Notes under the pieces: generated by a model
Database searches by the model: none
What the model was told of the DNA's origin: nothing
What the model saw: only the letters and a program-made list of their open reading frames with translations
Shown here: one piece after another, positions 314 to 28,431 of the stretch
Layout of the letters: every line of letters starts with the position of its first letter
How positions within the stretch are numbered: position 1 is the first letter of the stretch
Position numbers and translations under genes: made by a program
NCBI GenBank assembly: GCA_016218585.1
Contig: JACRDK010000025.1
Location: forward strand, 27,637 to 91,636
Reading direction: 5' to 3'
From: Candidatus Doudnabacteria bacterium
GTDB lineage: Bacteria; Patescibacteriota; Doudnabacteria; UBA920
Length of the DNA: 64,000 bases

Positions 314-404
314 AAAACTAAATAATTATAGCTATTTTTGACTATTTTGGCAATGCTTATACACAAATTAAAACCCGCCTCAATGGGCGGGAGTTTTGTT
401 GAAT

Positions 405-731: not shown

Positions 732-764
732 ATAGTTCCTGTCGCCTCCCCGATGTACATCGGG

Positions 765-797
765 GCGCTCTACCAAATGAGCTAAGGGCCCAAAATA
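765..797. repeat. 33-nt direct repeat, copy 2. An orphan tRNA-Ala 5' half followed by the hairpin ccccgatgtacatcgggg, located upstream of the GIY-YIG gene.
   Basis: Exact 33/33 match to 454-486. The copies diverge immediately outside the repeat. Confidence 0.9.
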
Positions 798-841
798 TAT
801 GCCTTGATATTCTACATCATATTTCGTTTTCTTTCAATCCC

Positions 842-1201
842 CTATTGAGCCAATTGAACTTTAACTTGCCTGCCATCTGGCAAAATAATCGTCGTATCGC
901 CTGCTTGCTGACTACTGGTGCCGCTTTGTTGATTCTCCCCGCCAATATTCATTACTCTTTTCGCTTCATTAAAGAATAGTTGATAGTCTTTTAATTGCTG
1001 CTTAAATTGCGCGGTTAAGCCTAACTTATTTAAAAACCATCCTAAAATTACAGCAACTAAAGCCAAACCAACAATATAACCAAGAGCCGAAAACATGCCG
1101 TTAAAAAAAGATCTCCAAATTCCAGGACTCTTTTTTGCTTTAATTTCCGTTAAATGCAAGTTAATTCCCGAAAGGTAATTTTTTAGCTCTGGGTCTAACA
1201 T
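842..1201 (-). CDS. Hypothetical membrane protein (119 aa)
   Basis: ORF with a central hydrophobic segment and no recognisable motif. Confidence 0.4.
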   Translation of the reverse strand: MLDPELKNYLSGINLHLTEIKAKKSPGIWRSFFNGMFSALGYIVGLALVAVILGWFLNKLGLTAQFKQQLKDYQLFFNEAKRVMNIGGENQQSGTSSQQAGDTTIILPDGRQVKVQLAQ

Positions 1202-1230
1202 AAATTTTGTTTTGTTATTTTAATATTTTC

Positions 1231-1305
1231 TGGTGCCCTCGGCAGGAATCGAACCTACATCTCATCCTTAGGACGGATTTGCTCTATCCATTGAGCTACA
1301 AGGGC
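1231..1305 (-). tRNA. tRNA-Arg (anticodon CCT)
   Basis: Cloverleaf with D-arm GCTCAATGGATAGAGC, anticodon loop GTCCTAA, T-loop TTCGATT, and CCA encoded. Confidence 0.8.
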
Positions 1306-1427
1306 GACACAACTGTGAAAATTATAACATAAATATACTACTTATGTTAGAATCAAGGAGGATTGTTAAATTATGAAAATTTATTATTTATACAATAAAT
1401 ATTTAAAATAGTCAACTTATTATATAA

Positions 1428-2822: not shown

Positions 2823-2865
2823 TTCTGTAGGTTTCGGTAGTGTTTCAATTTCGTGGTTCTGTAGT

Positions 2866-3342
2866 TTATTTATGGTATTCTTTGCCGGCCAAGATTGTAC
2901 AAGCTCTATAAATTTGTTCTTCTAAAAGAATCCTTGCCATATTATGAGGGAAAGTAAGAGGGGACAAAGAAATTGAATAATTGGAATAACTTTTTAAACT
3001 AGAATGCAGCCCAACACCGCTGCCAATTACAAAAATTAATTCTTTGCCCAAGCCGCCAGTTCTTTCTAAAAATGTTGCAAAATCAGGAGAATTTCTTAAA
3101 GTTCCTTTTTCTTCAAGCAAAATAACTATTCCATTTTCCGGCAATTGCTTAATTATTTTTTCCGCTTCTTGTTCTTTAATTTTTTCTATTTCCTGATTTT
3201 TACCATAGCCAATTTCGGGTAATTCAATTACCTTAATTTTAGCAAAAGGGGATAAGCGCTTTAAATATTCCGCTTCCAATTCTTTGTAAGCTGATTCCTT
3301 AAATTTTCCTAAAACAATAATCTTTATTTTAAACATATTCAA
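2866..3342 (-). CDS. rlmH: 23S rRNA (pseudouridine1915-N3)-methyltransferase RlmH (SPOUT)
   Basis: ~155-aa SPOUT protein. The C-terminal LSLSPLTFPHNMARILLEEQIYRA is characteristic of RlmH/YbeA. Confidence 0.8.
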   Translation of the reverse strand: MNMFKIKIIVLGKFKESAYKELEAEYLKRLSPFAKIKVIELPEIGYGKNQEIEKIKEQEAEKIIKQLPENGIVILLEEKGTLRNSPDFATFLERTGGLGKELIFVIGSGVGLHSSLKSYSNYSISLSPLTFPHNMARILLEEQIYRACTILAGKEYHK

Positions 3343-3373
3343 ATAATACTACTGAATGCTCAATTTGAGCAAA

Positions 3374-3412
3374 TTAAAAAACAGCCTTCCGGTAAAGAAG
3401 GCTGTTTTTTAA
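3374..3412. terminator. Bidirectional rho-independent terminator
   Basis: Hairpin aacagccttccggtaaagaaggctgtt flanked by an A-run and a T-run. Confidence 0.75.
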
Positions 3413-3420
3413 TTTAGGAA

Positions 3421-10145: not shown

Positions 10146-11666
10146 TTAAAAACTGTGTAAAATTTCTATTTTCGCGCCAAGCGCACTTAGCCGGCTAACT
10201 AAATTTTCATAACCGCGATTTATGGAGTAAACATTGCGCAAAACCGAAGTTCCTTTGGCCGCCAACATTGCAATTAAAATTATTGCCGCGGGCCTTAAAG
10301 CCGGAGGGCAAATTATTTCTGCCGCTTTCAACTCACTCGGACCTTCCACATAAACGCGATGAGGATCTGCCAAAATTATGCTGGCGCGCAATTTATTTAG
10401 TTCCATATAATAAATTGCCCGGTTTTCATAAACCCAATCGTGAATAAGAGTGGTGCCTTTGGCTTGAGTAGCAACAGGCACAAAAAATGGCAGGTTGTCG
10501 ATGTTTAATCCCGGATAGGGTAGGGGATGAATTTTTTCTTCCAGCGCGGTGAGTTCGGAAGGAAGAGTTTTAATGTCTACTAAGTTAGTATGGTTATTAT
10601 AACTCTTATATCGCTTGGTGATCTTATAATTAAAACCCATTTTTTCCAATTTTAAAAGTTCTAGTTCCAAAAAATCAATTGGGCAGCGCTCAATGGTAAT
10701 GGCCGACTTGGTCGTGGCGGCCAGGGACAAAAACAGCATTGCCTCAATAGGATCTTCGCTTAAATGATAAACCGCTCTGGTATTTATTTGTGGCTTGCCG
10801 TGAACAGTTAGTGTGGTGGTACCAATTCCTTCAATTTTCACGCCTAAAACATTTAAAAAGTAACATAAATCCTGCACCATATAATTGGAAGAGGCGAGTT
10901 TAATGGTGGTGACTCCGGGAAGTTTAGCGGCAGCCATCAGGGCATTTTCCGTTACGGTGTCGCCCATTTCATACAACACAACTTCCGCCGGCTTTAAGTT
11001 ATGGGCGGAAACGGAATAATGGTCATGATGGGTTTTTATTCCCATACCCAATTTTTCCAGCGCATACAAATGCGGGCGAACGGTGCGCGCCCCTAATTTG
11101 CAGCCGCCTGCCAAAGGCAGGGTAAAATTATCCAACAAATGAGCCAACGGACCAAGCAGCATTAATACGCTCCTGGTTTTTATAGCTGCCTCTTTGTTTA
11201 TTTTTTTTATATCAATTTTTTTTGGGGGAACAATTTCAACATCTGCCCCCTGCCATTTTACGGAAACGCCCAAGCTAACCAAAACTTCAATCACCCGATG
11301 TACTTCTTCTATTTTAGGTACGCTTTTTAAAATAGTTTTACCGGAATTTAATAGAGAAGCACAAAGCAAAGCCACCGCGGCATTTTTTGAGGTGTTAACA
11401 GCAATATTGCCGGAAAGCTTATGTCCGCCTTCAATCTTAAAATTAACCGATTTATCCGCTAAGGTAATTATTTCCTGATTTAACACGCTGCTGATTTTTG
11501 CCAGCATTTCAGTGGTCATATTTTGCTGGCCTTTTTCCATTCGCGCCACTGCCGACTGGCTGGTTTTTAAGCTGCGAGCAAACTCGCTTCTGGTAAAACC
11601 CTTTAACTCCCTAATTTCTTGAATAAATTTGCCAATTTTTTGGCGATCTTGCAAAGTTGATTTCAT
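10146..11666 (-). CDS. murA: UDP-N-acetylglucosamine 1-carboxyvinyltransferase MurA with an N-terminal XRE-type HTH domain fused
   Basis: N-terminal ~65 aa has an HTH_XRE pattern (IQEIRELKGFTRSEFARSLKTSQSAVARMEKGQ). The rest carries MurA motifs, including GGCKLGARTVRPH with the catalytic Cys. Confidence 0.8.
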   Translation of the reverse strand: MKSTLQDRQKIGKFIQEIRELKGFTRSEFARSLKTSQSAVARMEKGQQNMTTEMLAKISSVLNQEIITLADKSVNFKIEGGHKLSGNIAVNTSKNAAVALLCASLLNSGKTILKSVPKIEEVHRVIEVLVSLGVSVKWQGADVEIVPPKKIDIKKINKEAAIKTRSVLMLLGPLAHLLDNFTLPLAGGCKLGARTVRPHLYALEKLGMGIKTHHDHYSVSAHNLKPAEVVLYEMGDTVTENALMAAAKLPGVTTIKLASSNYMVQDLCYFLNVLGVKIEGIGTTTLTVHGKPQINTRAVYHLSEDPIEAMLFLSLAATTKSAITIERCPIDFLELELLKLEKMGFNYKITKRYKSYNNHTNLVDIKTLPSELTALEEKIHPLPYPGLNIDNLPFFVPVATQAKGTTLIHDWVYENRAIYYMELNKLRASIILADPHRVYVEGPSELKAAEIICPPALRPAAIILIAMLAAKGTSVLRNVYSINRGYENLVSRLSALGAKIEILHSF

Positions 11667-11805: not shown

Positions 11806-12018
11806 TTAGAAGTGCAATATTTTGGAAAACCACTTATCCATATAGTGAGACTGGAGATTGGTGTAGTAGAGGAACATTAAAGCGGCTAAATATATAACAT
11901 TTAACACCACAACTTTAATTAAATCTCCCTTAATTATTGCATATTCCGCCTCATGGGACAGGGAGTGCACGCCGGTTGGAGAAGAGGAATTTTGATTATG
12001 CTGATGTTTTTTGCTCAT
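11806..12018 (-). CDS. Small hypothetical membrane protein (70 aa)
   Basis: ORF with one or two TM segments. Confidence 0.35.
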   Translation of the reverse strand: MSKKHQHNQNSSSPTGVHSLSHEAEYAIIKGDLIKVVVLNVIYLAALMFLYYTNLQSHYMDKWFSKILHF

Positions 12019-12102
12019 GGCTAAAATTCGATTATCTAATTTTCAAGTTATTTAATGCTCATATTATAACACTTTCAGCCATTTGAAAGCAACGGCTTAA
12101 CA

Positions 12103-12594
12103 GTGCTACAATGTCTAAAGCTTATGAATTTCAATTTGTCCATCTTCAACTTAATTTTAATTGTCCTGACGCTTATGGGACTAGGTTATTGCCTGTGGCA
12201 AATAACGTCTCTTAACCGCCTGCGCAAAAGTTTTTTTAAAAGCTCCGACGGCTTAGACTTGGAACAGGTGATATATTCTTTATCTTCCTCCCTGCAAGAC
12301 GGACAAAGGCAGCAACAGGCTCTGGAAAACGCTTTAATTGAATTAAGAGAGAAAACTTCCTTTGCAGTGCAAAAAGTTGGCCTAGTAAGATTCAACCCAT
12401 TTGACGATGGGGGAGGAAATTTTAGTTTCTGCCTTGCTCTATTAGACGAACATAACAGCGGCGTAGTAATTACCAGCATGCACGGACGGCAACAGAACAG
12501 GATTTATACCAAAAAAATTGACGACGGCAAAAGCGATTCTCAGTTAAACGACGAGGAACTCCAGGCCGTAAAAAATGCACATTATAAAAATTAA
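12103..12594 (+). CDS. DUF4446-like protein (N-terminal TM plus conserved C-terminal domain)
   Basis: Pattern VGLVRFNPFDD...VITSMHGRQQNRIYTK recalls the DUF4446 family. This is from memory, not verified. Confidence 0.45.
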   Translation: MLQCLKLMNFNLSIFNLILIVLTLMGLGYCLWQITSLNRLRKSFFKSSDGLDLEQVIYSLSSSLQDGQRQQQALENALIELREKTSFAVQKVGLVRFNPFDDGGGNFSFCLALLDEHNSGVVITSMHGRQQNRIYTKKIDDGKSDSQLNDEELQAVKNAHYKN

Positions 12595-12648
12595 TTTATT
12601 ATTCTACAATTAACCTTAGGCGCAGGAACCTAAAAAAGGAAAATATTT

Positions 12649-13050
12649 ATGGAAAGAACACTGGATGACTCATTAAATGCCCCGTCCGAAACAGTAGTAG
12701 GACCAAGTGTAAAAATCCAGGGGGATTTAAACAGCGAAGGCAACATAAAAATAGAAGGACAAGTGAGCGGAAAAGTTAAAACCAGCCAGAGCGTGTTTGT
12801 AATCCCGGGAGCAAAAATTGCCGCCGATGTTTTGGCCGGAAATGCTGTTATAGGGGGAGAAATCCAGGGTAATTTAAAAATTGCCGGGCATTTGGTTTTG
12901 CAAAGCACGGCAAAAATTTTAGGAGACATTGCCTGTTCTGTCCTTCGCGTAGAAGACGGCGCCCAATTTAGCGGTAAATGCGTAATGGGTGTTAGCGGCA
13001 ACGGCAAAAAGAATGGTTCCAGCCAAGACCCGGAAATAGAGCCGGAATAA
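12649..13050 (+). CDS. Bactofilin (DUF583/CcmA) cytoskeletal protein
   Basis: Repetitive beta-helical G/V-rich pattern (GNIKIEGQVSGKVK...GNAVIGGEIQGNLKIAGHLV) typical of bactofilins. Confidence 0.7.
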   Translation: MERTLDDSLNAPSETVVGPSVKIQGDLNSEGNIKIEGQVSGKVKTSQSVFVIPGAKIAADVLAGNAVIGGEIQGNLKIAGHLVLQSTAKILGDIACSVLRVEDGAQFSGKCVMGVSGNGKKNGSSQDPEIEPE

Positions 13051-15980: not shown

Positions 15981-17906
15981 ATGAACCTCTCTTCACTCTC
16001 CAGCCAACTGAATATGTCCATCCAAGATCTCCGCGTGAAAGCAAAAGAGAAAGGTTTTTTTATTTCCCCAAAAGCAAATAAAGTAGATAACTACGTCGCC
16101 AGAAAACTCTTAGAAGCTTTTGGCGAACCAGTAAAGCCTGTTTCATCCGGCCCGCAGGAAATAAAAAAAATTAAACTTCCGTCTTTTATTAAAGTCCGCG
16201 ATTTTTCAGATATTCTGAAACTCCCTGTTACCACGGTAATAAAAGAGCTTATTAAAAATGGCATTATGGCCACGATTAATGAGGAAGTAGACTTTGACAC
16301 AGCCAGCATTGTGGCTCAAGACTTGGGTTTTGAAGTGGAAGTAGAAGCGGATAAAACCGTAACGGAATTTGGCTTGGGTTTTTTGCAAGATGTTTTAAAA
16401 TCAGAAAAAGAAGAAAACTTAAAACAGCGTCCGCCAATTGTGGCAATTATGGGACACGTTGACCACGGAAAAACCACGCTGCTCGACACAATCCGCAAAA
16501 CTAAAGTGGCCGAGGGCGAAAGCGGCGGCATTACCCAGCACATCGGTGCTTATCAAATTAAGAAAAACGGTAAATTTATTACTTTTCTGGACACTCCGGG
16601 CCACGAAGCTTTTAGCGAAATGCGCGCCAGAGGCGCCAACGTTACGGATATTATTGTTTTGGTGGTTGCGGCAGACGACGGCGTAAGGCCGCAAACCGTG
16701 GAAGTTGTTAACCGCGCCAAGTTTACCAACACGCCGATGATTGTTGCCATAAACAAAGTAGACAAGCCGGATGCCAACATTATGCGCGTAAAGCAGGAAC
16801 TGTCGGGCATTGGCGTACTCACGGAAGAGTGGGGCGGCAAAACTATTGCCGTGGAAATCTCCGCCAAACAAAATAAAGGAATAGATAATCTGTTGGAAAT
16901 GATTTTATTGACTGCCGAAATTGAAAACTTCCGCGCCAATCCGTCGGGCAAAACCATCGGCACAATTATTGAAAGCAAAATTTCTCAGGGAAAGGGAGCC
17001 ACTGCTTCTGTAATAATTCAAAATGGCACGCTTAAAGTTGGCGACATAATCGCCGCCGGAGCTGCTTTCGGGCGCATTCGTTCCTTGGAAGATGAAACCG
17101 GCAAAAAACTTAAAGAGGCCTTGCCGTCTATGCCGGTACAAATTTCCGGCTTTTCCGAAGTGCCAAAAGCCGGCGATATTTTACAAACCACCGCCGACTT
17201 AGATGCTGCCAAACAAATTGCCGTTACCGTACAAAAGAAAAACCAGAGCCACAGAATGGCCAGCAAGCAGGGGATTGTTGGAGACATTGCCAACAAAACT
17301 TTAAACCTGATTATAAAAACCGATGTTGGCGGATCTTTGGAAGCAATCAAGCAATCCATCGCCAAGTTAAAAAATGATGAAGTAAAAATCAACATTTTAA
17401 GCGAAGGCGTAGGCGAAGTAAATGAATCTGATATTTTATTAGGAGCCAACTCTAAAGCCTCAGTTATTGCCTTCCGCACCAAAGTTAACCCCAAAGCAGC
17501 TAATTTAGCCAAGCAGCAAAAAGTTGTAGTAGACAGCTACGAAGTAATTTATGAGCTGCTAGAAGATATTACTTCTGCGGTTATTAAAATGTTTACTCCG
17601 GAACTGGAAAAAATTTCCAACGGCAAAGCTAAAGTTTTAGCAATCTTCCGCACTGAAAAGGGACAAATGATTATTGGCGGAAAAGTGGAAGAAGGAGAGT
17701 TGAAAAAGAACAGCCAAATTATGATTTTGCGTGCCGGCGCCGAACTTGGCCGGGCGGAAATTATGGAACTTCAACAAAGCAAAGTCGGCGCAAAAACTAT
17801 TGGCCGCAACGAAGAATTCGGCATTAAATTAAAAACCCCCATAAAAATTTTAGAAGGGGATGTGTTGGAAAGCTTTGAAGAGAAGATCAAGCAAAAAACA
17901 CTTTAA
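15981..17906 (+). CDS. infB: Translation initiation factor IF-2
   Basis: G-domain GHVDHGKTTLLD, DTPGHEAF, NKVD, plus the C-terminal beta-barrel domains. Confidence 0.95.
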   Translation: MNLSSLSSQLNMSIQDLRVKAKEKGFFISPKANKVDNYVARKLLEAFGEPVKPVSSGPQEIKKIKLPSFIKVRDFSDILKLPVTTVIKELIKNGIMATINEEVDFDTASIVAQDLGFEVEVEADKTVTEFGLGFLQDVLKSEKEENLKQRPPIVAIMGHVDHGKTTLLDTIRKTKVAEGESGGITQHIGAYQIKKNGKFITFLDTPGHEAFSEMRARGANVTDIIVLVVAADDGVRPQTVEVVNRAKFTNTPMIVAINKVDKPDANIMRVKQELSGIGVLTEEWGGKTIAVEISAKQNKGIDNLLEMILLTAEIENFRANPSGKTIGTIIESKISQGKGATASVIIQNGTLKVGDIIAAGAAFGRIRSLEDETGKKLKEALPSMPVQISGFSEVPKAGDILQTTADLDAAKQIAVTVQKKNQSHRMASKQGIVGDIANKTLNLIIKTDVGGSLEAIKQSIAKLKNDEVKINILSEGVGEVNESDILLGANSKASVIAFRTKVNPKAANLAKQQKVVVDSYEVIYELLEDITSAVIKMFTPELEKISNGKAKVLAIFRTEKGQMIIGGKVEEGELKKNSQIMILRAGAELGRAEIMELQQSKVGAKTIGRNEEFGIKLKTPIKILEGDVLESFEEKIKQKTL

Positions 17907-17946
17907 CCCGATCCGAATCAACGAATACTATGCGAATTATCCGAAT

Positions 17947-17970
17947 AAAACCCCGCGAACACGGGGTTTT
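17947..17970 (+). terminator. Terminator after infB
   Basis: aaaaccccgcgaacacggggtttt. Confidence 0.7.
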
Positions 17971-17981
17971 ATAATGGGCTT

Positions 17982-18007
17982 GCCACGTCGCTCGCGAGCG
18001 ACGTGGC
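17982..18007. repeat. Perfect 26-nt GC-rich palindrome gccacgtcgctcgcgagcgacgtggc
   Basis: Self-complementary. Related to the element at 25788-25811. Confidence 0.8.
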
Positions 18008-18085
18008 TTGATAAAATGGCAAAAATTGACTATACTATATAGTCATCTTACACTTTGTGTATATTTGAAATTAATTTAAAACTAT

Positions 18086-19593: not shown

Positions 19594-20178
19594 TTATTTG
19601 TCAGTATCCGCGTATTTGCGATTTTTTAAAGTTTCCGCCCACCAGGTAAGGCTGCCAAGCAAACCTTCAATTTTTTTGTCCAAAGCAGGTTCCAGCAACT
19701 GACCTTCGTCATTAAAATACTTTTCCACCGGGCCAATCATAATTGTTTCCCTCATTGCTACGGCGGCAAAATTTTCTATAATTGTTCTAAGCTGTTCAAT
19801 AACCCGAGCGCCGGAAACCGTGCCGTTGGAAACCCCAACTAAACCAAACGGTTTTCTTTCAAACTCTGTATACAGCCAGTCCAGCGCGTTTTTTAAAACC
19901 GCCGGGTATCCGTGATTGTATTCCGGGGTAACAATTATAAAAGCGTCTGCGGCCCGGGCAATATTGCTCCACTTTTGAGCGTTCTCATTTGGATAACCTT
20001 TTTTATAATAAACCACGGGAACTGTTGGCCCGTTATAAAACGGCAAAGACAATTCTTTAAAATCAACTAAGATTGATTCATGTCCGGCTGCCCTAACTTT
20101 TTGGTGAATATATTTTGCCGCAGCCTCGCTCTTCCTGCCCTCGCGTACGCTGCCTAAAATTATTGGGATGTTAAGCAT
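19594..20178 (-). CDS. NAD(P)H-dependent FMN reductase family flavoprotein (flavodoxin-like fold)
   Basis: LNIPIILGSVREGRKS...FIIVTPEYNHGYPAVLKNALDW is typical of the FMN_red family. Start taken at the internal Met. Confidence 0.65.
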   Translation of the reverse strand: MLNIPIILGSVREGRKSEAAAKYIHQKVRAAGHESILVDFKELSLPFYNGPTVPVVYYKKGYPNENAQKWSNIARAADAFIIVTPEYNHGYPAVLKNALDWLYTEFERKPFGLVGVSNGTVSGARVIEQLRTIIENFAAVAMRETIMIGPVEKYFNDEGQLLEPALDKKIEGLLGSLTWWAETLKNRKYADTDK

Positions 20179-20251
20179 TTTATTTTTTCCTTTCCACAAA
20201 CTAATTATAGCCCAAAATTAAAAAAACGTCCTATAAATTAGAACGGTTTTT

Positions 20252-20335
20252 TGGTGCCCGAGGAGGGACTCGAACCCTCAAGCCAAAGGCATACGCACCT
20301 CAAGCGTACGTGTATACCAATTCCACCACCCGGGC
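20252..20335 (-). tRNA. tRNA-Leu (anticodon GAG), with a long variable arm
   Basis: Acceptor GCCCGGG/CTCGGGC, anticodon loop TTGAGGT, long extra arm, T-loop TTCGAGT, and CCA encoded. Confidence 0.8.
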
Positions 20336-20340
20336 GCGTT

Positions 20341-20991
20341 TTAGCTTTTTTTATCTTTAACTAAGATATTATACGCTTTTTTATATTTTCTTTCAAGCCT
20401 TGGAACAGTGTGGTTATAATACATCTTGTTAATTAGCAATCTGGAATCGTTCTTTGCAAAAACCAACTTATATGCGCCAGCATATGCCTGTTTGCTCAAA
20501 CTGCCTTTTATCTCAATGAATCCCTTAATTTTTTTCCTTAACCAGGATAAATGGTTAAAGCTCGCGGAAGCAAAATTAATATAGAATGCGAAACTATTTT
20601 TCCATCTTTCGTCATAATAAGAATAAACTGTCCCATCTCCATCAAAAGAACCTCGTAAAAAGTCAAAAAAATAAATATCTGGGACTTTTATAACGCCAAT
20701 GGTTTTTGACTTGTTCGGAGTCAACCCTAAACTAAGAAGAAAATTATAGAAATTTACATCGCCAAACTGAACCCAATAAGAAAAACTTCCACCGACAAAG
20801 CCACTCTTTTTCTTTAGGATTTTAACCTCTAAACCTAAACACTTCATGAAAACCTTAATTAACTGCAAATCTTTCGATATAAAAGCCATATGTCTTTTGT
20901 CATTATATAAGCAACCATCAGTTGCAATCAGACCAATGGCATAAGCCAATTCTGGTGACCATATTGTAGAAATTTTCTTCTGTGGTTTCAT
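20341..20991 (-). CDS. Free-standing double-motif LAGLIDADG homing endonuclease family protein
   Basis: Two motifs, LAYAIGLIATDGCL and FLRGSFDGDGTV, spaced ~100 aa apart. The stop codon lies 5 nt upstream of the tRNA-Leu 5' end on the same strand. Confidence 0.8.
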   Translation of the reverse strand: MKPQKKISTIWSPELAYAIGLIATDGCLYNDKRHMAFISKDLQLIKVFMKCLGLEVKILKKKSGFVGGSFSYWVQFGDVNFYNFLLSLGLTPNKSKTIGVIKVPDIYFFDFLRGSFDGDGTVYSYYDERWKNSFAFYINFASASFNHLSWLRKKIKGFIEIKGSLSKQAYAGAYKLVFAKNDSRLLINKMYYNHTVPRLERKYKKAYNILVKDKKS

Positions 20992-21156
20992 ATCTCAAAG
21001 CTAAAGCGTATACCAATATTATATCATATAAATTATTAATATTCCTCTTGATTAAAACCGCTCCTAGGTGTATGATTGCGACAATCAAAAGGAGGCTCGA
21101 TAAGCTGTAAAAGCATACTCGGACCTTCTTTTTACTTTCACGTGAAAGAGGAAAAT

Positions 21157-21963
21157 ATGACCAGAGAAGATGCGCGGTCGCGTATTATTGTTGCACTCGA
21201 CGTCAACAGTGTCGAGAAAGCCATTGAGCTCGTGTCCAAACTGAAAGGTAAGGTCGGCGGGTTCAAAATCGGTTTCGAATTCATCTACTCAATGTTCGCC
21301 ACGTTGGTAACATCGTCGGCGGAAGTCGCCCACCAGACCCTCGACCAGCTTCGCGAACTATTTGCCAATCTTGATCACCAGGAATTTCTGGACGGGAAGA
21401 TTGCAGATATTGGCAACACAGTCGCCGGCGCCTGCAAAGCAATTTGTCGGCTACAGCCGCTGATGTTCAATGTTCACGCTTTCGCTGGAGAACCCGCCAT
21501 GAAAGCGGCACGTAAAGCCGTGGACGAAATGTCGACCACACTCGAACTTGAACGCAAGCCGTTACTCTTAGCAGTCACCGTTCTCACTAGCCTCGGAGAG
21601 GAACACTTGATACAACTCAGTCTCAAAACCGAGGAAGACAAGGCTCCTCGCCGCCTTGAACTAGTTATCAAATACGCCATGCTGGCTCAAGCCTGTGGCT
21701 GCGACGGCGTTATTGCTTCACCTTTGGAGGTCTCAGCTATCCGCACAGCCTGCGGGCCGAACTTCCTCATCTTCACACCCGGCGTGCGTCTGCCCGGCTC
21801 AAGCAAAGGGGATCAAGTGGCAGTCAGCACCCCAGGAAATTCCATCCTCGACGGCGCCACTGGCGTTGTGGTGGGTCGCGACATTACTGGGGCTGAAGAC
21901 GTGGTCGAAGCCGCCGAACGTGTAATCGACAACATCCTCACGACCGTCAACGAACAGATTTAG
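21157..21963 (+). CDS. pyrF: Orotidine 5'-phosphate decarboxylase
   Basis: IIVALDV...KIGFE...DGKIADIGNTVAGA active-site pattern (D-x-K-x-x-D). RBS GAGGAAAAT. High-GC codon usage. Confidence 0.8.
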   Translation: MTREDARSRIIVALDVNSVEKAIELVSKLKGKVGGFKIGFEFIYSMFATLVTSSAEVAHQTLDQLRELFANLDHQEFLDGKIADIGNTVAGACKAICRLQPLMFNVHAFAGEPAMKAARKAVDEMSTTLELERKPLLLAVTVLTSLGEEHLIQLSLKTEEDKAPRRLELVIKYAMLAQACGCDGVIASPLEVSAIRTACGPNFLIFTPGVRLPGSSKGDQVAVSTPGNSILDGATGVVVGRDITGAEDVVEAAERVIDNILTTVNEQI

Positions 21964-21976
21964 AAGGAGAGCTAGA

Positions 21977-22672
21977 ATGACCGACGACCAAGTCTTTCGC
22001 GCGCTTCAAAATTGCGGCGCGGTCAACATCAAAAGCCATTTTTGTCTGACCCCCAAAGAGATTCCACCGGGATCAGGCATTAAACGGCACTTTCACTCTG
22101 ACACCTTCATCGCCAAAGACAGGGTGTTTGAATATGCCAGAGAGCTCTACTGTCTTGCCCAGGAAATTGCCGACCGGCATCTGATGCAGACTCAAAACCG
22201 CCCCTGCGACTTTGTGCTGGGTTTAGAAAAAGGGGCTATTGCCCTTGCAAACCTGGTATGTCACCATCTGCAAATATCCGGACACGACCATGTTCGCGCT
22301 GGTTACGCTGAAGCCAAACCCGGCGGCGGTTTTACCATCGGCCGAGGCTTCGCCCGCAACTACACCGGACGCACGGTTCTAATAGTTGAAGATATCGTGG
22401 TTTCCGGCACTTCTGTAAGAGACGCCATGGAAGCGGTTCGCGAAAACGCTGGCATACCCTTTGGCATCTGGGCAATCTGCTTGCGAGGCGACGCGGACAC
22501 CGGTGGTGTCCCGCTCAACTACCTTTGCAAGGTCGACGGCGCTCAAATGTGGGCGGAAGAGGAATGTCCTCTTTGCGCTGACCCCAAGTGGGGGCCGACA
22601 TCGGTCCGCACGGACATCAACAAGCACGGGCCGGAATTCTTCAAGCGGATGAACCTGCCTATTCCACTGTAA
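21977..22672 (+). CDS. pyrE: Phosphoribosyltransferase, probable orotate PRTase
   Basis: Type I PRTase PRPP-binding motif VLIVEDIVVSGTSVRDAMEAV. Its position between pyrF and other pyr genes supports the call. RBS GAAGGAG. Confidence 0.6.
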   Translation: MTDDQVFRALQNCGAVNIKSHFCLTPKEIPPGSGIKRHFHSDTFIAKDRVFEYARELYCLAQEIADRHLMQTQNRPCDFVLGLEKGAIALANLVCHHLQISGHDHVRAGYAEAKPGGGFTIGRGFARNYTGRTVLIVEDIVVSGTSVRDAMEAVRENAGIPFGIWAICLRGDADTGGVPLNYLCKVDGAQMWAEEECPLCADPKWGPTSVRTDINKHGPEFFKRMNLPIPL

Positions 22673-22705
22673 CGCTGGGTCCATATTTACAGCAACCATC
22701 CAAAA

Positions 22706-22751
22706 GCGCCGCGATCCCAACCGGGTTGCGCGGCGCTTTTTCAATTAAAAA
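22706..22751 (+). terminator. GC-rich terminator, copy 1 of a ~45-bp repeat
   Basis: cgccgcg...atcccaaccgggttgcgcggcg followed by ctttttcaattaaaaa. Nearly identical to 25233-25279. Confidence 0.75.
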
Positions 22752-22819
22752 CACAAACGACCTGTCCAAAATCTTTCGATTCCAAACAGGTCGTTTTAAA
22801 GTTGCAAGTGCAAGGGAGA

Positions 22820-23779
22820 TTACTTGTAAACTTCCAAAGCGTGGCGGATAATGCCGCGAACCCGCCATGGACGAAGCATTGCAACGCTGCCAATGCAAAC
22901 TGCGTCGGCTCCGGCTTCTTTTAGAACATCCACCGCGGTGGCGTTGAGAATTCCGCCGCCTGCCGCAATTGGTTTTTCCAAACCCGCATCTCGCGCCGCC
23001 TTCACCCAGTCAGCAGTCAGAGGCAACAATGGCCAGCCGGAGAGCCCGCCGCCGCCGAATTTCTTTAGCGGCGACTCCTTGGTCCCAAACAGTTCCTGCC
23101 AATCAATTTTCTCCGGCAACTTCCCCCACGGCACTGTATTGGAAACACAGACCGCCGAAAGACAAGGATGCCGCGAGATTGCCACCGCTGTTTCCGGCTC
23201 GGTGGTTACTGAATACTTGTCGACAATGGGCACACCCAACATCGACAGAACACCCAAGTGCCGCCACGATTCGTCAATGAATTCGTCTGGTGAAATTTTC
23301 TCGAGCCCGACATTCGGACAGGAAGCGTTGCGCTGAATGGCGATGTTGGCTTTAAACTCAGACAGGCGCGGCTTCAAAACATCCACAAACTCCTTTGTCT
23401 CCGCCAAACGTTCGCCCGCCGTTGCTGCCACCGACATAAACGAAATCATAAACGGTTCTCTGCGCGCTTGCCACTTGCCGGTATCAAGCAAAGCCTTTAA
23501 ACCGTGCCCGCTCAAACCAACCGCGTTAAGCGCAACGCCGGCGAAAGGCTTAACCACAATACATTTGGGTTTCAGCTCAGCCGGAGTCGTGCCGTCTTTT
23601 TTCAGTGGCATGTTGCCAACGCGCGGGGCAACTGTCGTGGTCTTGGCCACAAAAGTAATCCCCGAAAAATCCAAGCCAAAAGGTTTACAGAACTTATGGA
23701 AAGGGTAGCCCTCACCAAAAAAATTCTGTATGCCCGATTGACCCCAAACGGAGCCAAAATCAACACCTCGCAATTTCAT
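22820..23779 (-). CDS. pyrD: Dihydroorotate dehydrogenase family protein (TIM-barrel flavoenzyme)
   Basis: Motifs NAVGLSGHG, NASCPNVG and GGGGLSG...AAGGGI match the DHOD/DHPD family. The antisense ORFs on the plus strand are composition artefacts. Confidence 0.65.
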   Translation of the reverse strand: MKLRGVDFGSVWGQSGIQNFFGEGYPFHKFCKPFGLDFSGITFVAKTTTVAPRVGNMPLKKDGTTPAELKPKCIVVKPFAGVALNAVGLSGHGLKALLDTGKWQARREPFMISFMSVAATAGERLAETKEFVDVLKPRLSEFKANIAIQRNASCPNVGLEKISPDEFIDESWRHLGVLSMLGVPIVDKYSVTTEPETAVAISRHPCLSAVCVSNTVPWGKLPEKIDWQELFGTKESPLKKFGGGGLSGWPLLPLTADWVKAARDAGLEKPIAAGGGILNATAVDVLKEAGADAVCIGSVAMLRPWRVRGIIRHALEVYK

Positions 23780-23913
23780 AAGGCCTCCTTCAGGTCTTCA
23801 AATAGCCAAATCATAATACAGAACTATGTGAAATAGGTCAAAATAAATGCTTGTCTTTTTTTAGACTTTCTGTAATACTCCTGTAAGAAATCGCAAGCCC
23901 TTAAGGAGGCACA

Positions 23914-25215
23914 ATGACCGGAGTAAAGAATATCTTGATTAACGGAGAAGAGCCCGGGGCCATCGTTTTTGATGGCAAGTTGATCCACGCTGTTTACAAG
24001 CCGGGAGACACCTTACCGCCCGATGTGGACTGGATTGACGGACACGGCTGCGAGGCCTATCCTGCCGGCGTAGATATGCATGTCCACGACAGGTGGGGCG
24101 AACCCAAACGTGAAGATCCGCAACACTTGGAAGCGGCTTGCATCGCGGGTGGCACGGCGACTATCGTTACCATGCCAAACACAATACCGCCTTTTGACCA
24201 AGCAAATCAAACCAGAACAAGACTTGCGGGGTTTAATTCCATCAATGTCCTGGCTTGGATAGCAGCCACGCGAACCAACTACACAGAACGGGAGATGGCC
24301 TATCATTATTTTTCGCGTCAAATTCCTGGTGCGAAACTGATGATGGCTTCTACCAACAACCCAGAAACCCTGGTAGACGACGGCCTGTCACAACGTCGTA
24401 TCCTGGAAGAGAATGCTGACCTCGATTGCATTACAACGATTCACGCTGAGGCTGAAGACCTAATCAAGAGGAATGTACAAGAATATAAGCAGCTGTACGG
24501 CCGGCTGCTTCGCCAACACCACTGCAAAATCCGTGAAAGCCAAGTTGAGGTTGAAGGCATCCGCCGCATCCTCAACATTCATCACGATGTTGGAGCCGGG
24601 CGCATTCACATAGCGCATGTGTCTACCGCAGACGGCATAAAGCTAATTCTAAGAGCCAAGTCCCGGGGACAGAACGTGACATTTGAAACCTGCCCCCACT
24701 ACTGGACATTCAACAATTTCTGGGTAGAGGCGGGTAACGGCGGGTTCTACAAAATGAATCCCGCCCTCAGGTCACCGGAAGAGCAGTTGATTGTCTTGCA
24801 ACACTTGTGCAACGGTGATGTCGATGTTTCTGCCACCGATCATGCCCCTCACCCTCGCGAAGCCAAGACAAATCCAGGCCTCGACGAATGCTCCAGCGGG
24901 GTTCCTGGAGTGGAGACGAATATCCCGTTGTTGTATGACCTGAAAACTCGTCGGATGATCTCCACCAAGAGGTTCATCGACCTGACCTCAAGAAACGCGG
25001 CAAAAATCCTGGGACTCAACAAAGGGTCGCTGGCGGCCGGGTTTGATGCCGACATGATTCTCATCGACCCATTCGCAAAATTCAAGATTGATGATTCTGG
25101 CGTCAAAAGCAAATGCGGTTGGACCCCGTACGCCGGAATGACCGTCAACAAAATTGTTTTCGTCGTAATTAGCGGCCAAGTGGTCGCACAAAATTTCGTC
25201 GAACAACAAACATGA
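23914..25215 (+). CDS. pyrC: Cyclic amidohydrolase, dihydroorotase-like
   Basis: Metal-binding motifs DMHVHDR and TDHAPH. ~430-aa type I dihydroorotase/allantoinase family. RBS AAGGAGG. Confidence 0.65.
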   Translation: MTGVKNILINGEEPGAIVFDGKLIHAVYKPGDTLPPDVDWIDGHGCEAYPAGVDMHVHDRWGEPKREDPQHLEAACIAGGTATIVTMPNTIPPFDQANQTRTRLAGFNSINVLAWIAATRTNYTEREMAYHYFSRQIPGAKLMMASTNNPETLVDDGLSQRRILEENADLDCITTIHAEAEDLIKRNVQEYKQLYGRLLRQHHCKIRESQVEVEGIRRILNIHHDVGAGRIHIAHVSTADGIKLILRAKSRGQNVTFETCPHYWTFNNFWVEAGNGGFYKMNPALRSPEEQLIVLQHLCNGDVDVSATDHAPHPREAKTNPGLDECSSGVPGVETNIPLLYDLKTRRMISTKRFIDLTSRNAAKILGLNKGSLAAGFDADMILIDPFAKFKIDDSGVKSKCGWTPYAGMTVNKIVFVVISGQVVAQNFVEQQT

Positions 25216-25232
25216 ACACTCCACAACAAGAC

Positions 25233-25279
25233 GCCGCGCGATCCCAACCGGGTTGCGCGGCGCTTTTTCAATTAAAAAA
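25233..25279 (+). terminator. GC-rich terminator, copy 2 of the ~45-bp repeat
   Basis: Near-identical to 22706-22751. Confidence 0.75.
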
Positions 25280-25367
25280 TATTTGTTAAACTACCTTTAC
25301 TACAACCTCTCTGTCCCGACAAGTCGGGACATCTCCCCTCAAAAGGGGAGAAAATAATGTAAAAACT

Positions 25368-25685
25368 ATGTCTACTAAATTCATTCGCAAAATTGAAGAC
25401 TTTAAATGCGGGCATTGCGGCAAAAAAACCAAAGGCAATGGTTATACAAACCACTGCCCAAAATGCCTTTGGAGCAAACACCTAGACAATTACCCGGGGG
25501 ACAGAGCTAACCCCTGCGGCGGACTTATGGAGCCTGTTGGTTTGGAACTGGAAAAAGGGGTATATCACATTATCCATCAATGCGAGACCTGCGGCGCCCG
25601 CGCCCGCTGCAAAAGTTCGCAGGAAGACAGCATTGAAGCCCTAACCGCGCTATCTGAGAGCCTTGCCAAAAAGCTAATGTTTTGA
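25368..25685 (+). CDS. RNHCP-domain zinc-ribbon protein (105 aa)
   Basis: GYTNHCPKCLWSKH plus CGHCG and CETCG cysteine pairs match the RNHCP domain signature. Confidence 0.6.
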   Translation: MSTKFIRKIEDFKCGHCGKKTKGNGYTNHCPKCLWSKHLDNYPGDRANPCGGLMEPVGLELEKGVYHIIHQCETCGARARCKSSQEDSIEALTALSESLAKKLMF

Positions 25686-25715
25686 TATAGTATTCAAGCG
25701 ATTAATTTACAATTT

Positions 25716-25790
25716 GGGCAATTAGCTCAGTGGTAGAGCGACTCGTTTACACCGAGTAGGCCGTAGGTTCAATCCCTACATTGCCCACCA
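25716..25790 (+). tRNA. tRNA-Val (anticodon TAC)
   Basis: Cloverleaf with anticodon loop TTTACAC, T-loop TTCAATC, and CCA encoded. Confidence 0.85.
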
Positions 25791-25811
25791 CGTAGTTCGC
25801 GAACGACGTGG
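25788..25811. repeat. GC-rich palindromic element ccacgtagttcgcgaacgacgtgg, overlapping the CCA end of tRNA-Val
   Basis: Shares the CCACGT-N-TCGCGA-N-ACGTGG design with 17982-18007. Confidence 0.7.
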
Positions 25812-25915
25812 CCCACCAGGTATAATTAGTTTATCAAGTTAAAAGTTATCAAGTTTATGAAGTTTGGTTGTAGGAACTTTATAACCTTTACCTTTACGAA
25901 CTTTATTACTTCCGT

Positions 25916-25990
25916 GCCGGGCTAGCTCATCGGTAGAGCGCTGCCCTGAAGAGGCAGGCGTGCCCAGTTCGACTCTGGGGCCCGGCACCA
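25916..25990 (+). tRNA. tRNA-Phe (anticodon GAA)
   Basis: Anticodon loop CTGAAGA, T-loop TTCGACT, and CCA encoded. Confidence 0.85.
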
Positions 25991-26048
25991 TAAATATACT
26001 TGCCAAAGAGTATAAAAAATTGATAGAATAGTATTTGAAAATTAGTTC

Positions 26049-26122
26049 GCGGCTATGGTTCAATGGTAGAACTTCTCCTTGCCATGGAGAGGATAGGGGT
26101 TCGATTCCCCTTAGCCGCTCCA
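26049..26122 (+). tRNA. tRNA-Gly (anticodon GCC)
   Basis: Anticodon loop TTGCCAT, T-loop TTCGATT, discriminator U, and CCA encoded. Confidence 0.85.
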
Positions 26123-26169: not shown

Positions 26170-26282
26170 ATAAGGATAGATGAGAAACCCAGGCTCGACT
26201 AAAAGTCCGCCATAGCTTTAGCGACGGCGGATTCCCCTCGAAGATTCCGACTTCATGTCGGGGTTAGCCGCTCCACAAAAAA
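26170..26282 (+). other. Structured ~110-nt element ending in a tRNA-Gly 3'-half mimic (hairpin plus TTAGCCGCTCCA)
   Basis: The 3' end GGGGTTAGCCGCTCCA duplicates the tRNA-Gly T-stem and acceptor 3' strand. Internal hairpins gtccgcc/ggcggat and ccgac-ttcat-gtcgg. Followed by the terminator at 26275-26308. Confidence 0.4.
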
Positions 26283-26348: not shown

Positions 26349-26651
26349 ATGAAAAAAAATATTCTTGGTTCTATAACCCTAATTATATTCTCCATACTAG
26401 CTTGGATTTGGTGGCGAGGGAACCAACCCGGAACCGGACTAGGGTTAATTGCCTATATACCTATAATAATTATATTGCTGTTTTTAGGATGTATATCTTT
26501 AATCTTCTGGTTGGACTCAATGAAACCCACCTCGGTGCCAAGCGTTGGTGAAACAAGTAAAAAAATAATAACTTCGGTTATTATTGTTATTGTAACAATC
26601 GGAGTAATTTATCTAGGATACCACTTACTTATGGTGCAACTAGGAATATAA
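26349..26651 (+). CDS. Small hypothetical membrane protein (100 aa, 3 TM)
   Basis: Hydrophobic ORF with no recognisable motif. Confidence 0.4.
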   Translation: MKKNILGSITLIIFSILAWIWWRGNQPGTGLGLIAYIPIIIILLFLGCISLIFWLDSMKPTSVPSVGETSKKIITSVIIVIVTIGVIYLGYHLLMVQLGI

Positions 26652-26694: not shown

Positions 26695-27000
26695 ATGAAA
26701 AAATTTTTAATTTACTGGAGCATAATCCTATTGGCGCTTACCGGAGCCGACTATTGGATGTCATATTATGGATCCAAAGCCACTTCTCTTTTTCATGGGT
26801 GGTTTTCTTTTATGGTGTTTGGCATTGCAATTCTTTGCATTATGCTCCCATCACTCCTAATTGGTTTTATTCTTACACGTCCGAACAATTCCCAAAACCC
26901 GTCCGACTCTCAAAATTTTTCAAATACCACCAAAACAATTCTTGTAATAATTGTACTTTTAGCAGCGCTATTCATAACTCGCTCAATATTTTTTAGGTAA
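26695..27000 (+). CDS. Small hypothetical membrane protein (101 aa)
   Basis: Hydrophobic ORF. The overlapping alternative-frame ORF 26754..26996 is rejected. Confidence 0.4.
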   Translation: MKKFLIYWSIILLALTGADYWMSYYGSKATSLFHGWFSFMVFGIAILCIMLPSLLIGFILTRPNNSQNPSDSQNFSNTTKTILVIIVLLAALFITRSIFFR

Positions 27001-28371: not shown

Positions 28372-28431
28372 ACGTATTCAGTTTTTGCCCCTAACTTTTT
28401 TGGAGCTAAAAAATCCGCGTTTCGAATTTTC

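Follow-up and report, generated by a model that had tools for sequence, protein, structure and literature searches.

The pyrimidine gene block

The 64-kb stretch of a Candidatus Doudnabacteria contig analysed here (64,000 nucleotides, referred to throughout as the window) carries a GC-rich block of four genes (21157-25215) between a tRNA-Leu gene and a cluster of three other tRNA genes. The four genes are best read as encoding four consecutive steps in the synthesis of uridine monophosphate (UMP). In related genomes the same slot is filled with differing sets of pyrimidine genes. The interpretation that we favour, with moderate confidence, is that we are dealing with an accessory locus for distal UMP synthesis, modular and prone to recombination, which keeps a fixed slot and is remodelled in situ by gene-by-gene displacement, inversion and deletion. 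The block and its neighbours consist of the following features, with family scores and GC content in parentheses.

19594-20199, minus strand: gene for an NADPH-dependent FMN reductase, left anchor (PF03358, 122 bits; GC 0.43, host-like)
20252-20335, minus strand: tRNA-Leu(GAG), conserved left anchor (ARAGORN and Rfam)
20341-20991, minus strand: putative free-standing LAGLIDADG endonuclease gene (PF14528, 28.4 bits against a cutoff of 22.5; GC 0.33)
21157-21963, plus strand: pyrF, orotidine monophosphate (OMP) decarboxylase type 1 (TIGR01740, 142.6 bits against a cutoff of 92.3; GC 0.54)
21977-22672, plus strand: PRT_A, a divergent Thermus-type protein resembling orotate phosphoribosyltransferase (OPRTase) (PF00156, 33.7 bits; TIGR01367, 61.4 against a cutoff of 150; GC 0.55)
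22820-23779, minus strand: predicted divergent class-1-like dihydroorotate dehydrogenase (DHOD), a single-gene unit (PF01180, 39.3 bits against a cutoff of 27; GC 0.54)
23914-25215, plus strand: predicted dihydroorotase (DHOase), type I 'multi' class (TIGR00857, 266.9 against a cutoff of 279.05; GC 0.52)
25368-25685, plus strand: RNHCP-domain protein, conserved right anchor (PF12647, 90.6 bits)
25716-26122, plus strand: cluster of tRNA-Val(TAC), tRNA-Phe(GAA) and tRNA-Gly(GCC), right anchor

A preliminary description of this region had reported a jump to 55-60% GC together with GC-rich codon usage. On recomputation with sliding windows the GC content shows a clear step rather than uniformity, and the codon usage is indeed GC-rich, with a GC content at third codon positions (GC3) of 0.58-0.60 against 0.41±0.06 in the other open reading frames (ORFs). 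The rise itself is therefore real, but the figure given for it was slightly high, as the GC content of the individual genes is 0.515-0.549. In 300-nt windows the values climb from 0.33-0.41 at 20400-21299 to 0.50-0.58 across 21150-25199 and are back at 0.30-0.40 to the right of 26250. The single dip within the block (0.41-0.44) coincides with the AT-rich divergent intergenic region near 23780-23913. When 60 ORFs of the window that do not overlap are ranked by GC3, the four pyrimidine genes (0.578-0.603) come out on top; the remaining 56 have a mean of 0.410 (standard deviation 0.056, maximum 0.519), which places the pyrimidine genes at z = 3.0-3.5. The first and second codon positions are also raised, so that the amino-acid composition of the proteins is shifted as well.

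Outside the block no 1-kb bin exceeds a GC content of 0.472, and the window as a whole has 41.6% GC. The window is an ordinary piece of a chromosome of the Candidate Phyla Radiation (CPR) from near the replication origin, and also codes for DnaA, DnaN, RecF, GyrA, IF-2, RbfA, S1, TyrRS, RuvB/C, YidC and a class-A penicillin-binding protein (PBP1). Two of the block's proteins are 100% identical to hypothetical proteins of a Candidatus Doudnabacteria metagenome-assembled genome, PRT_A to HY918_04565 and the DHOD-like protein to HY918_04570, which are encoded on a contig of 125 kb. The absence of pyrB and carAB from the block, which had also been claimed, was confirmed by a Pfam scan of 55 window ORFs (50 of at least 150 amino acids and five shorter): neither these genes nor pyrK or pyrH were found among them. 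The scan left out four ORFs of 155-158 amino acids, which are too short for pyrB or carAB.

The same slot in related genomes

Relatives were taken to be contigs coding for close relatives of the DHOase or the phosphoribosyltransferase (PRT), and are labelled L002 and so on. The contents of the slot are listed below, with the identity of each DHOase to that of the window in parentheses, followed by the GC content of the cargo and of the flanks.

Window: LAGLIDADG gene; type 1 pyrF with PRT_A; DHOD of divergent type (minus strand); DHOase
L006 (88%): pyrF of a different type with PRT_B; window-type DHOD (minus strand); DHOase. L005/L006 cargo 0.50-0.53, flanks 0.38-0.44
L005 (DHOase protein the same as in L006): DHOD truncated after ~150 residues and joined to an unrelated tRNA/HNH context
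L002, L003 and L004 (66%): type 1 pyrF, PRT_C (resembling pyrE of TIGR00336), a 289-residue class-1-like DHOD (plus strand), DHOase. L002 cargo 0.55-0.59, flanks 0.41-0.46
L007 (49%): LAGLIDADG gene; type 1 pyrF, PRT_B, quinone-dependent class-2 DHOD (NF003652, 418 bits) and DHOase, as overlapping genes. Cargo 0.49-0.52, flanks 0.43-0.48, a weak excess
L092 (49%): uracil phosphoribosyltransferase (UPRTase; minus strand); radical-SAM protein; DHOase. Cargo 0.52-0.54 in all three genes, flanks 0.38-0.44
L011, L094 and L095 (no DHOase): type 1 pyrF with PRT_A, then directly RNHCP. L011 cargo 0.54-0.58, flanks 0.38-0.46; L094/L095 cargo 0.55-0.58, flanks 0.34-0.39

The frame around the slot is well conserved. 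Its left side consists of (IF-2)-RbfA-DHH/DHHA1-FMN reductase (minus strand)-tRNA-Leu(gag) and its right side of RNHCP-tRNA-Val(tac)-tRNA-Phe-tRNA-Gly, and both sides are present in L002/L003, L007 and L092. The FMN reductase is syntenic and 54-73% identical in L002, L007 and L092. The tRNA-Leu(GAG) gene recurs at the equivalent place in L002 and L007, and also starts L095, while the tRNA-Val/Phe/Gly trio is kept in identical order in L002 and L007. The RNHCP gene lies directly 3' of the cargo, whatever that cargo is, in L002, L005, L007, L011, L092, L094 and L095. Its GC content is 0.39-0.46 in the relatives and an intermediate 0.48 in the window, and its identity to the window copy parallels that of a host marker, orf237. 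No description of a function for RNHCP was found in the literature. Because L002 and L007 share the entire frame from tRNA-Leu(gag) to RNHCP-tRNA-Val(tac)-Phe-Gly, the tRNA genes and RNHCP are anchors and not insertion scars. The neighbours named in the preliminary description (tRNA, LAGLIDADG and RNHCP genes) are thus all present, but the tRNA genes and RNHCP represent conserved synteny rather than the boundaries of an island.

Within this frame, every sampled relative has the slot occupied by one or more pyrimidine-metabolism genes; there is no empty slot, and the content varies by module and not as a unit. Across these genomes PRT comes in three unrelated types, DHOD in three and pyrF in two, and L092 has UPRTase with a radical-SAM protein instead. 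PRT_A, PRT_B and PRT_C show no detectable similarity in any pair (the PRT_B proteins of L006 and L007 are 41% identical to each other). The DHOD of the window is 23% identical to that of L002/L004 and essentially unrelated to the class-2 enzyme of L007. The DHOD gene is on the minus strand in the window and L006 but on the plus strand in L002. The pyrF of L006 is presumably type 2: the 77-residue C-terminal piece that is available does not match the window pyrF and is 53% identical to a second OMP decarboxylase, pyrF_sub2, of L011. The PRT and DHOD genes are therefore non-orthologous between relatives, whereas pyrF and the DHOase gene are orthologous. Orthologs of pyrF are 48-66% identical to that of the window in L002, L007, L011 and L094, and orthologs of the DHOase occupy the same position at 49-89% identity in L002, L005/L006, L007 and L092.

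The synonymous divergence (dS) of the window from L002, L007, L094 and L011 is at least 1.5 or not computable, in cargo and flanks alike, and is thus saturated. As the GC excess of the cargo is shared across lineages separated by saturated dS, the anomaly must be old or renewed and is not the result of a single recent import. Neighbouring genes also diverge unevenly. Between the window and L005/L006, dS is 0.59 for the DHOase, 1.53 for the adjacent DHOD and 0.93 for RNHCP. The pyrF proteins are 60-67% identical in all pairs among the window, L094/L095, L011 and L002, which is incongruent with RNHCP and orf237, as the latter are 81-86% identical within the window, L094 and L011 and 45-53% identical to L002.

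Two of the related contigs have further features at or near the slot. At L092:2570-4882, the UPRTase and the 490-residue radical-SAM protein (GC 0.53-0.54) replace pyrF, PRT and DHOD, and the DHOase and RNHCP are kept. L011 carries a second pyrimidine cluster at 1-3414 with host-like GC content (0.40-0.43), composed of a class-2 DHOD, pyrF_sub2, a Thermus-type pyrE (132.8 bits) and phosphoribosyl pyrophosphate (PRPP) synthase. Either the back-to-back pyrF and PRT pairs of L011 are redundant, or PRT_A and type 1 pyrF have a distinct substrate.

A repeated terminator at the module junctions

Two of the transcription units in the block end in copies of the same repeat, here called T, and the DHOD gene has signals of its own.

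22697-22751, plus strand: T copy 1, ending the pyrF-PRT_A unit (direct repeat D1; the fold of 22670-22822 shows the stem-loop)
25224-25278, plus strand: T copy 2, ending the DHOase unit (repeat scan and terminator scan)
22755-22796, minus strand: the DHOD gene's own terminator, with a 19-bp stem (terminator scan and fold), conserved in L006
23841-23813, minus strand: promoter-like site of the DHOD gene

T is a 55-nt direct repeat of which the final 42 nt are identical. The window contains exactly two copies, where none would be expected by chance, in agreement with the earlier claim that a GC-rich terminator occurs twice in the block. The terminator scan called copy 2 alone; copy 1 folds into the same stem-loop. 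L006 and L005 also carry two copies, after PRT_B and after the DHOase, and in L006 T has persisted although its upstream neighbours (the different pyrF type and PRT_B) are not those of the window. Copies match at 47 of 47 positions within the window and at 45 of 50 within L005/L006, but only at 38-42 of 49 between genomes. Because copies within a genome are more alike than corresponding copies in different genomes, the T copies evolve in concert.

L094 and L011 have a single T, whose left flank is that of window copy 1 (TTACAGCAACCA.CCAAAAGCG) and whose right flank is that of window copy 2 (AAAAAATATTTGTTAAACTAC). From these mixed flanks it follows that the 2.5-kb segment consisting of the DHOD terminator, the DHOD gene (minus strand), the divergent promoters, the DHOase gene and T is an insertion or deletion with its breakpoints in T. 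Either the segment was looped out and lost between the two direct repeats, or it was gained by an insertion in the opposite sense.

Origin of the block

The preliminary description took the block for a horizontally acquired, tRNA-associated genomic island. In its full form this would mean that a single island from a GC-rich bacterium was integrated beside a tRNA gene and recently added a four-step module, a model that is now largely refuted and that we consider very improbable. The observations in its favour are sound: GC and GC3 are sharply atypical, with boundaries that match those of the gene block, the shift affects all three codon positions as it would after long residence in a GC-richer genome, tRNA genes flank both sides, and the DHOD family has members in GC-rich genomes outside the CPR (L010, GC 0.65). 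However, the locus lacks the defining features of such an island. No integrase or recombinase occurs in the ORFs scanned between 18 and 29 kb, namely RbfA, DHH, FMN_red, LAGLIDADG, the four pyrimidine genes, RNHCP, orf237 (without a match in Pfam) and a small membrane protein at 26349-26651 (a second small membrane ORF at 26695-27000, of 101 amino acids, was read as sequence, outside the recombinase scan). No tRNA-derived, att-type repeat brackets 21060-25280, no relative has an empty site, and it is the 5' ends of tRNA-Leu (20335) and tRNA-Val (25716), not the 3' ends, that point at the block. The tRNA/RNHCP frame and its GC-rich cargo are common to relatives at saturated dS, the four genes have different histories, and the PRT_A family is rare and seen only in similar contexts. 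Still less can be said for an assembly chimera in which the contig of a GC-rich organism was joined into an AT-rich CPR contig, as this has only the abrupt compositional boundaries in its favour. The left junction (tRNA-Leu, LAGLIDADG gene where present, leader and pyrF) recurs in L007 and L095, which are independent assemblies from other samples; the right junction (DHOase, T and RNHCP) recurs in L005 and L006; the whole frame is found in L002 (JGI) and L003 (ENA); and the pyrF promoter and leader are AT-rich and conserved across relatives. In addition, the Logan contig L001 is 100% identical to the window over 22710-23958. The case against a chimeric assembly, which we consider extremely improbable, comes from synteny and not from mapped reads.

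A more serious alternative, though one that we think rather unlikely, is that the block is an ancestral pyrimidine operon of the clade, inherited vertically, whose GC content is held high by a gene- or locus-specific force (codon or mRNA selection, or GC-biased conversion), with rare replacements in situ and no ongoing exchange. It would account well for pyrF and the DHOase, which in the window, L002 and L007 are orthologs at one and the same locus and have diverged to an extent of the order seen in the flanks. A GC excess that persists despite saturated dS fits an equilibrium rather than a transient state, and the concerted evolution of T indicates that gene conversion acts in the locus. What this alternative explains poorly is the variety of the cargo, in which the same positions are taken by no fewer than three unrelated types of PRT, three of DHOD and two of pyrF, and the star-like pyrF identities, which depart from those of the host markers. 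Those genes of the L092 cargo that are not concerned with pyrimidine biosynthesis (UPRTase and radical-SAM protein) are equally GC-rich. There is no sign of a regional conversion gradient, as neither the immediately adjacent flanking genes nor the LAGLIDADG gene (GC 0.33) are enriched in GC.

A mosaic of this kind in a fixed slot argues that the locus was assembled and remodelled in situ, and not delivered whole by one integrase-mediated insertion. The remodelling is visible in the mosaic of gene types, the anchors on both sides, the breakpoints in T, the concerted evolution of T and the decay of the DHOD gene in L005. In the window the locus would consist of three units: the promoter, leader hairpin, pyrF, divergent Thermus-type OPRTase and T; the minus-strand DHOD gene with its own promoter-like site and terminator; and the type I dihydroorotase followed by the second copy of T. 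Modules may be exchanged by homologous or homology-facilitated recombination, for which the conserved tRNA genes, RNHCP and the T hairpins could serve as arms.

Several points weigh against remodelling in situ. About eight relatives were examined, several of them on short contigs. The identity of the DHOase to the window protein (66% in L002 and 49% in L007) roughly follows that of the flanking DHH protein (74% and 65%), and part of the cargo, that is pyrF and the DHOase, which are orthologous across the clade, may simply be vertical. The recombination mechanism is deduced from the junctions and was not observed. The OPRTase and DHOD activities are predictions from fold, motifs and gene context, and no PyrK partner or other electron acceptor for the DHOD is evident in the scanned window ORFs. 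Finally, neither a donor nor a genome from a GC-rich 'pool' came to light. The best DHOase match in 185,579 species genomes is 38% identical and comes from Harrisonbacteria, which is itself a CPR bacterium (a point that also tells against a single island from a GC-rich source), and the next matches, at ~30-33%, are in assorted CPR bacteria, Firmicutes and archaea. A scan of the species genomes with the single DHOase gave no match, and one with the alignment gave only distant DHOases of at most 38% identity. Metagenome contigs scanned with PRT_A gave no match, and scanned with the alignment of the clade's DHOases gave L002 again and one 2-kb contig. An exact-protein look-up found nothing for the DHOase and one 1.2-kb Logan contig for the DHOD. 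An exhaustive search with pyrF returned metagenome proteins only and identified no donor. Scans of IMG/VR with the DHOase alignment and with pyrF found no relatives on viral contigs, and there is therefore no sign of a phage vehicle. Pyrimidine clusters at host-like GC content in Harrisonbacteria, Kerfeldbacteria, a Patescibacteria single amplified genome and Peribacteria indicate that pyrimidine genes are not foreign to the CPR.

Under remodelling in situ, the high GC content of the cargo could be due either to repeated replacement from a GC-richer pool or to a locus-specific bias such as GC-biased gene conversion. A more far-reaching proposal, which we offer tentatively as a doubtful possibility, is that the slot is an integrase-free cassette-exchange site. 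Self-contained modules would circulate among Doudnabacteria-like CPR genomes and be swapped at the tRNA/RNHCP anchors and at T, and the cargo would stay GC-rich through renewal from a GC-richer shared pool or through strong local GC-biased conversion. If true, such a site would be a standing, 'community-owned' metabolic module in reduced symbionts.

The locus has partial parallels among known systems. Omelchenko, Makarova, Wolf, Rogozin and Koonin are said to have described, in 2003, mosaic operons that arise by xenologous or non-orthologous gene displacement in situ. As in such operons, a functionally coherent cluster stays in place and serves one pathway, although individual members give way to isofunctional genes that are only distantly related or unrelated to them. 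The slot differs in keeping a compositional offset in nearly all lineages, and in that its modules are separate transcription units, inverted or deleted, with a repeated terminator at the breakpoints. With tRNA-associated integrative islands (pathogenicity or metabolic islands with P4-type integrases) it shares atypical GC content, metabolic cargo, tRNA genes at its edges and variable content, but no integrase or att repeat from a tRNA 3' end was found, the block lies on the 5' sides of the tRNA genes, and none of the sampled relatives has an empty slot. Like integron cassettes, the modules are each trailed by a similar imperfect palindrome, and the breakpoints of presence and absence fall in the repeat. 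An integron array was nevertheless rejected as an explanation: IntI was not found, the modules carry their own promoters, and T is a terminator (a hairpin of ~35-45 nt and a U-run) that is shorter than attC and does not have both core sites.

No description of this locus was found in the literature. It provides a clean natural case of gene-by-gene displacement in a fixed slot with a compositional offset that outlasts synonymous saturation. Standard amelioration reasoning, by which atypical GC content denotes recent transfer, would misread it. Its interest lies mainly in the long-lived compositional offset and in the turnover of modules in a reduced CPR genome.

Predicted functions of the four genes

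The pyrF gene has the firmest assignment. Besides exceeding the TIGR01740 cutoff, its product scores 192.7 against a cutoff of 193 for NF001273, and its best match in the PDB is 3tr2 (115 bits). The motif D-G-K-I-A-D aligns with DLKFYD of 3tr2, the catalytic DxKxxD, so that both the family score and the catalytic motif of an OMP decarboxylase are present. The longest ORF begins at a TTG at 21076. The start was placed at the ATG at 21157 because the N-termini of relatives begin MTR.DA.SRIIVALD.

The DHOase is below the cutoff of every equivalog family, but contains the HxH motif (HVH in DMHVHDR, aligned). Its best match in the PDB is the dihydroorotase 7uof at 159 bits, and the top seven entries are all dihydroorotases (159-125 bits), ahead of an allantoinase at 124 bits and of hydantoinases.

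PRT_A and the DHOD-like protein are more divergent, and for both of them all scores against the NCBIfam equivalogs are far below the cutoffs. PRT_A belongs to a rare family, with 13 relatives among 5.8 billion proteins. It contains a PRPP loop (VLIVEDIVVSGTS) and a C-terminal CPLC motif, as do more typical Thermus-type relatives at 30-34% identity. The modelled structure has a predicted local distance difference test (pLDDT) score of 91.6, and a fold search returns H. pylori HP1257 first and then OPRTases, with template modelling (TM) scores of 0.54-0.67. The fold, the motifs and the gene context together lead to the prediction that PRT_A is an orotate phosphoribosyltransferase.

The DHOD-like protein reaches only 46.7 bits against a cutoff of 269 for NF005574. 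Its NASCPNV loop, with the catalytic Cys, and its GGLSG motif (GGGLSG) align with L. lactis PyrDB (PDB 1ep1). The model has a pLDDT of 93.4, and the top 50 PDB folds are all DHODs, yet with TM scores of only 0.67-0.70. DHOD activity is likewise predicted from fold, motifs and gene context. The family is large (1,146 matches, more than 100 of them at 51-58% identity) and has members in many CPR genomes and, outside the CPR, in GC-rich genomes such as L010, mostly as a stand-alone gene. In an Uhrbacteria genome a gene for a pyrC_dimer dihydroorotase (403 bits) comes directly after the DHOD-like gene, with 9 nt between the stop and the next start. Distances among 120 proteins of the family are star-like; nearer relatives are weakly more 'GC-rich' in amino acids (rho = -0.32), which is possibly a compositional artefact.

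The preliminary description assigned four consecutive steps of UMP synthesis to the block. For pyrF this holds and for the DHOase it is likely, while the OPRTase and DHOD calls are weak by sequence and depend on fold, motifs and context. The conversion of carbamoyl-aspartate to dihydroorotate, orotate, OMP and UMP nevertheless remains the best functional reading. It can be set against the proposal that there is no UMP pathway here at all, the amidohydrolase and the DHOD-like protein serving instead in the reductive catabolism of pyrimidines or hydantoins, or using some other substrate, with the PRT acting in salvage. This seems improbable. Models of allantoinase, hydantoinase and dihydropyrimidinase give the DHOase 170-190 bits, and its TIGR00857 score is just short of the cutoff, but it scores highest with dihydroorotases, among the models and in the PDB alike. 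Neither the DHOD-like protein nor the PRT comes near any equivalog cutoff, and the DHOD-like family usually stands alone in other genomes; against this, the catalytic Cys motif and the DHOD folds are present, PRT_A matches the fold of OPRTases first, and the Uhrbacteria gene directly precedes a dihydroorotase gene. Although L092 keeps the DHOase without pyrD, pyrE or pyrF, sister genomes have bona fide class-2 DHOD and pyrE-type genes at the DHOD and PRT positions, and pyrF, which exceeds its equivalog cutoff, is predicted to be co-transcribed with the PRT. A catabolic role for the amidohydrolase and DHOD-like pair was accordingly ranked low. The locus also lends context-based support to a DHOD function in a large and poorly annotated DHOD-like family, and to the reading of a rare PRT family as OPRTases.

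CPR bacteria are generally held to obtain their nucleotides from hosts. The pathway in the window strain would be fed by carbamoyl-aspartate, dihydroorotate or orotate from outside the cell, any of which it could convert to UMP, while sister strains would keep only the conversion of orotate to UMP, or uracil salvage. Such variable cargo would fit a symbiont that draws different pyrimidine intermediates from its surroundings. A single lineage would then keep a flexible, strain-variable entry to UMP (the full distal pathway, orotate to UMP only, or uracil salvage), and the locus may mark the pyrimidine intermediates that these cells take from hosts. According to a paper on soil CPR bacteria (PMC8407418), most genes for nucleotide synthesis are missing from these genomes, and Doudnabacteria have gained operons for ubiquinol oxidase by lateral transfer. 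The latter makes the quinone-dependent DHOD of L007 less odd.

The pyrF leader

The region 5' of pyrF contains two predicted elements.

21048-21076, plus strand: promoter-like site, TTGATT-17-TATGAT (promoter scan)
21087-21132, plus strand: pyrF leader hairpin followed by a U-run, a putative attenuator (folding free energy -20.2 kcal/mol, z = -2.3)

The promoter and the ~85-nt leader are conserved in the window (21048-21156) and at L095:185-315, L011:3500-3610, L002:7240-7360 and L007:7085-7185. The 5' arm of the hairpin resembles a Shine-Dalgarno sequence (AAAGGAGG) and the 3' arm is CCUUCUUUU, and the hairpin folds alike in all five lineages. The comparison of these five sequences gives no covariation support for the pairing. 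In L002 and L007 a short ORF of 19 or 15 codons starts just past the Shine-Dalgarno-like arm and ends in an ATGA that overlaps pyrF; neither the window nor L095 has a conserved counterpart of this ORF. A search of Rfam, including its PyrR site, gave no match to the leader.

The canonical pyrimidine leaders are those of E. coli pyrBI and pyrE, with attenuation sensitive to uridine triphosphate, and those of Bacillus, with attenuation by PyrR. The pyrF leader looks like a transcription attenuator of the pyrimidine type. As in the canonical operons, pyrF and a pyrE-like gene appear to be co-transcribed behind a conserved leader hairpin and U-run, and the short ORF of L002 and L007 that runs through the hairpin to the ATGA overlap with pyrF is a further likeness. 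The locus differs from these operons in having no pyrB, carAB or pyrR, and in that the 5' arm of the hairpin is itself Shine-Dalgarno-like (AAAGGAGG).

LAGLIDADG genes and other features

The LAGLIDADG gene lies 5 nt from tRNA-Leu. Its product scores above the Pfam cutoff and contains two motifs in one chain (LIATDG and FDGDG), and the genomic position of such genes is variable, which together point to a homing-type LAGLIDADG protein with predicted endonuclease activity. A homolog with 52% identity lies at the matching site of L007 (6369-7022), and the site is empty in L002 and L095. We regard the gene as a separate mobile element that is neither part of the pyrimidine cargo nor the boundary of an island.

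L002 carries LAGLIDADG homologs at two other places, between tRNA-Val and tRNA-Phe (11979-12728) and between tRNA-Cys and tRNA-Leu(taa) (17381-18052). In the window no such gene is present at the equivalent sites (25791-25915 and 28372-28431). The free-standing LAGLIDADG genes of the window, L007 and L002 are 45-52% identical and adjoin different tRNA genes. In the window the ORF lies between tRNA-Leu(gag) and a degenerate 24-nt copy, at 20993-21017, of the stretch from the anticodon to the D arm of this tRNA (CTCAAAGCTAAAGCGTATACCAAT), which spans 20298-20321, and the same arrangement is seen in L007 (7023-7060). The alignment score of the degenerate copy is 21, against 13.9±2.1 for shuffled sequences (maximum 25). 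This arrangement suggests that the LAGLIDADG gene entered at a tRNA gene with partial duplication of the target.

On the right side of the slot, the 3' end of tRNA-Gly(gcc), TTAGCCGCTCCA (26111-26122), recurs 142 nt downstream at 26264-26275. Over its extended length this repeat matches at 16 of 18 nt. It is absent in L002 and L007, lies outside the pyrimidine block, and may have been left behind, like an att site, by an element that was excised, or else stem from a tRNA fragment that has decayed. Between T copy 2 and RNHCP, in the region of 25300-25345, a stretch of ~70 nt contains two small perfect hairpins (GTCCCGAC..GTCGGGAC and TCTCCCCT..AGGGGAGA). It is missing from the otherwise alignable intergenic regions of L005, L094 and L011.

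Elsewhere in the window, dnaA-dnaN-recF are located at 51736-55525, so that the window includes the replication-origin region and the pyrimidine slot is ~27 kb from dnaA. A transporter of the xanthine/uracil permease family (59015-60313; PF00860, 93 bits), ~34 kb from the pyrimidine block, represents a possible route for nucleobase uptake. An EPSP-synthase-family (MurA-like) protein encoded at 10146-11666 carries an N-terminal HTH_3 domain, which is an unusual fusion.

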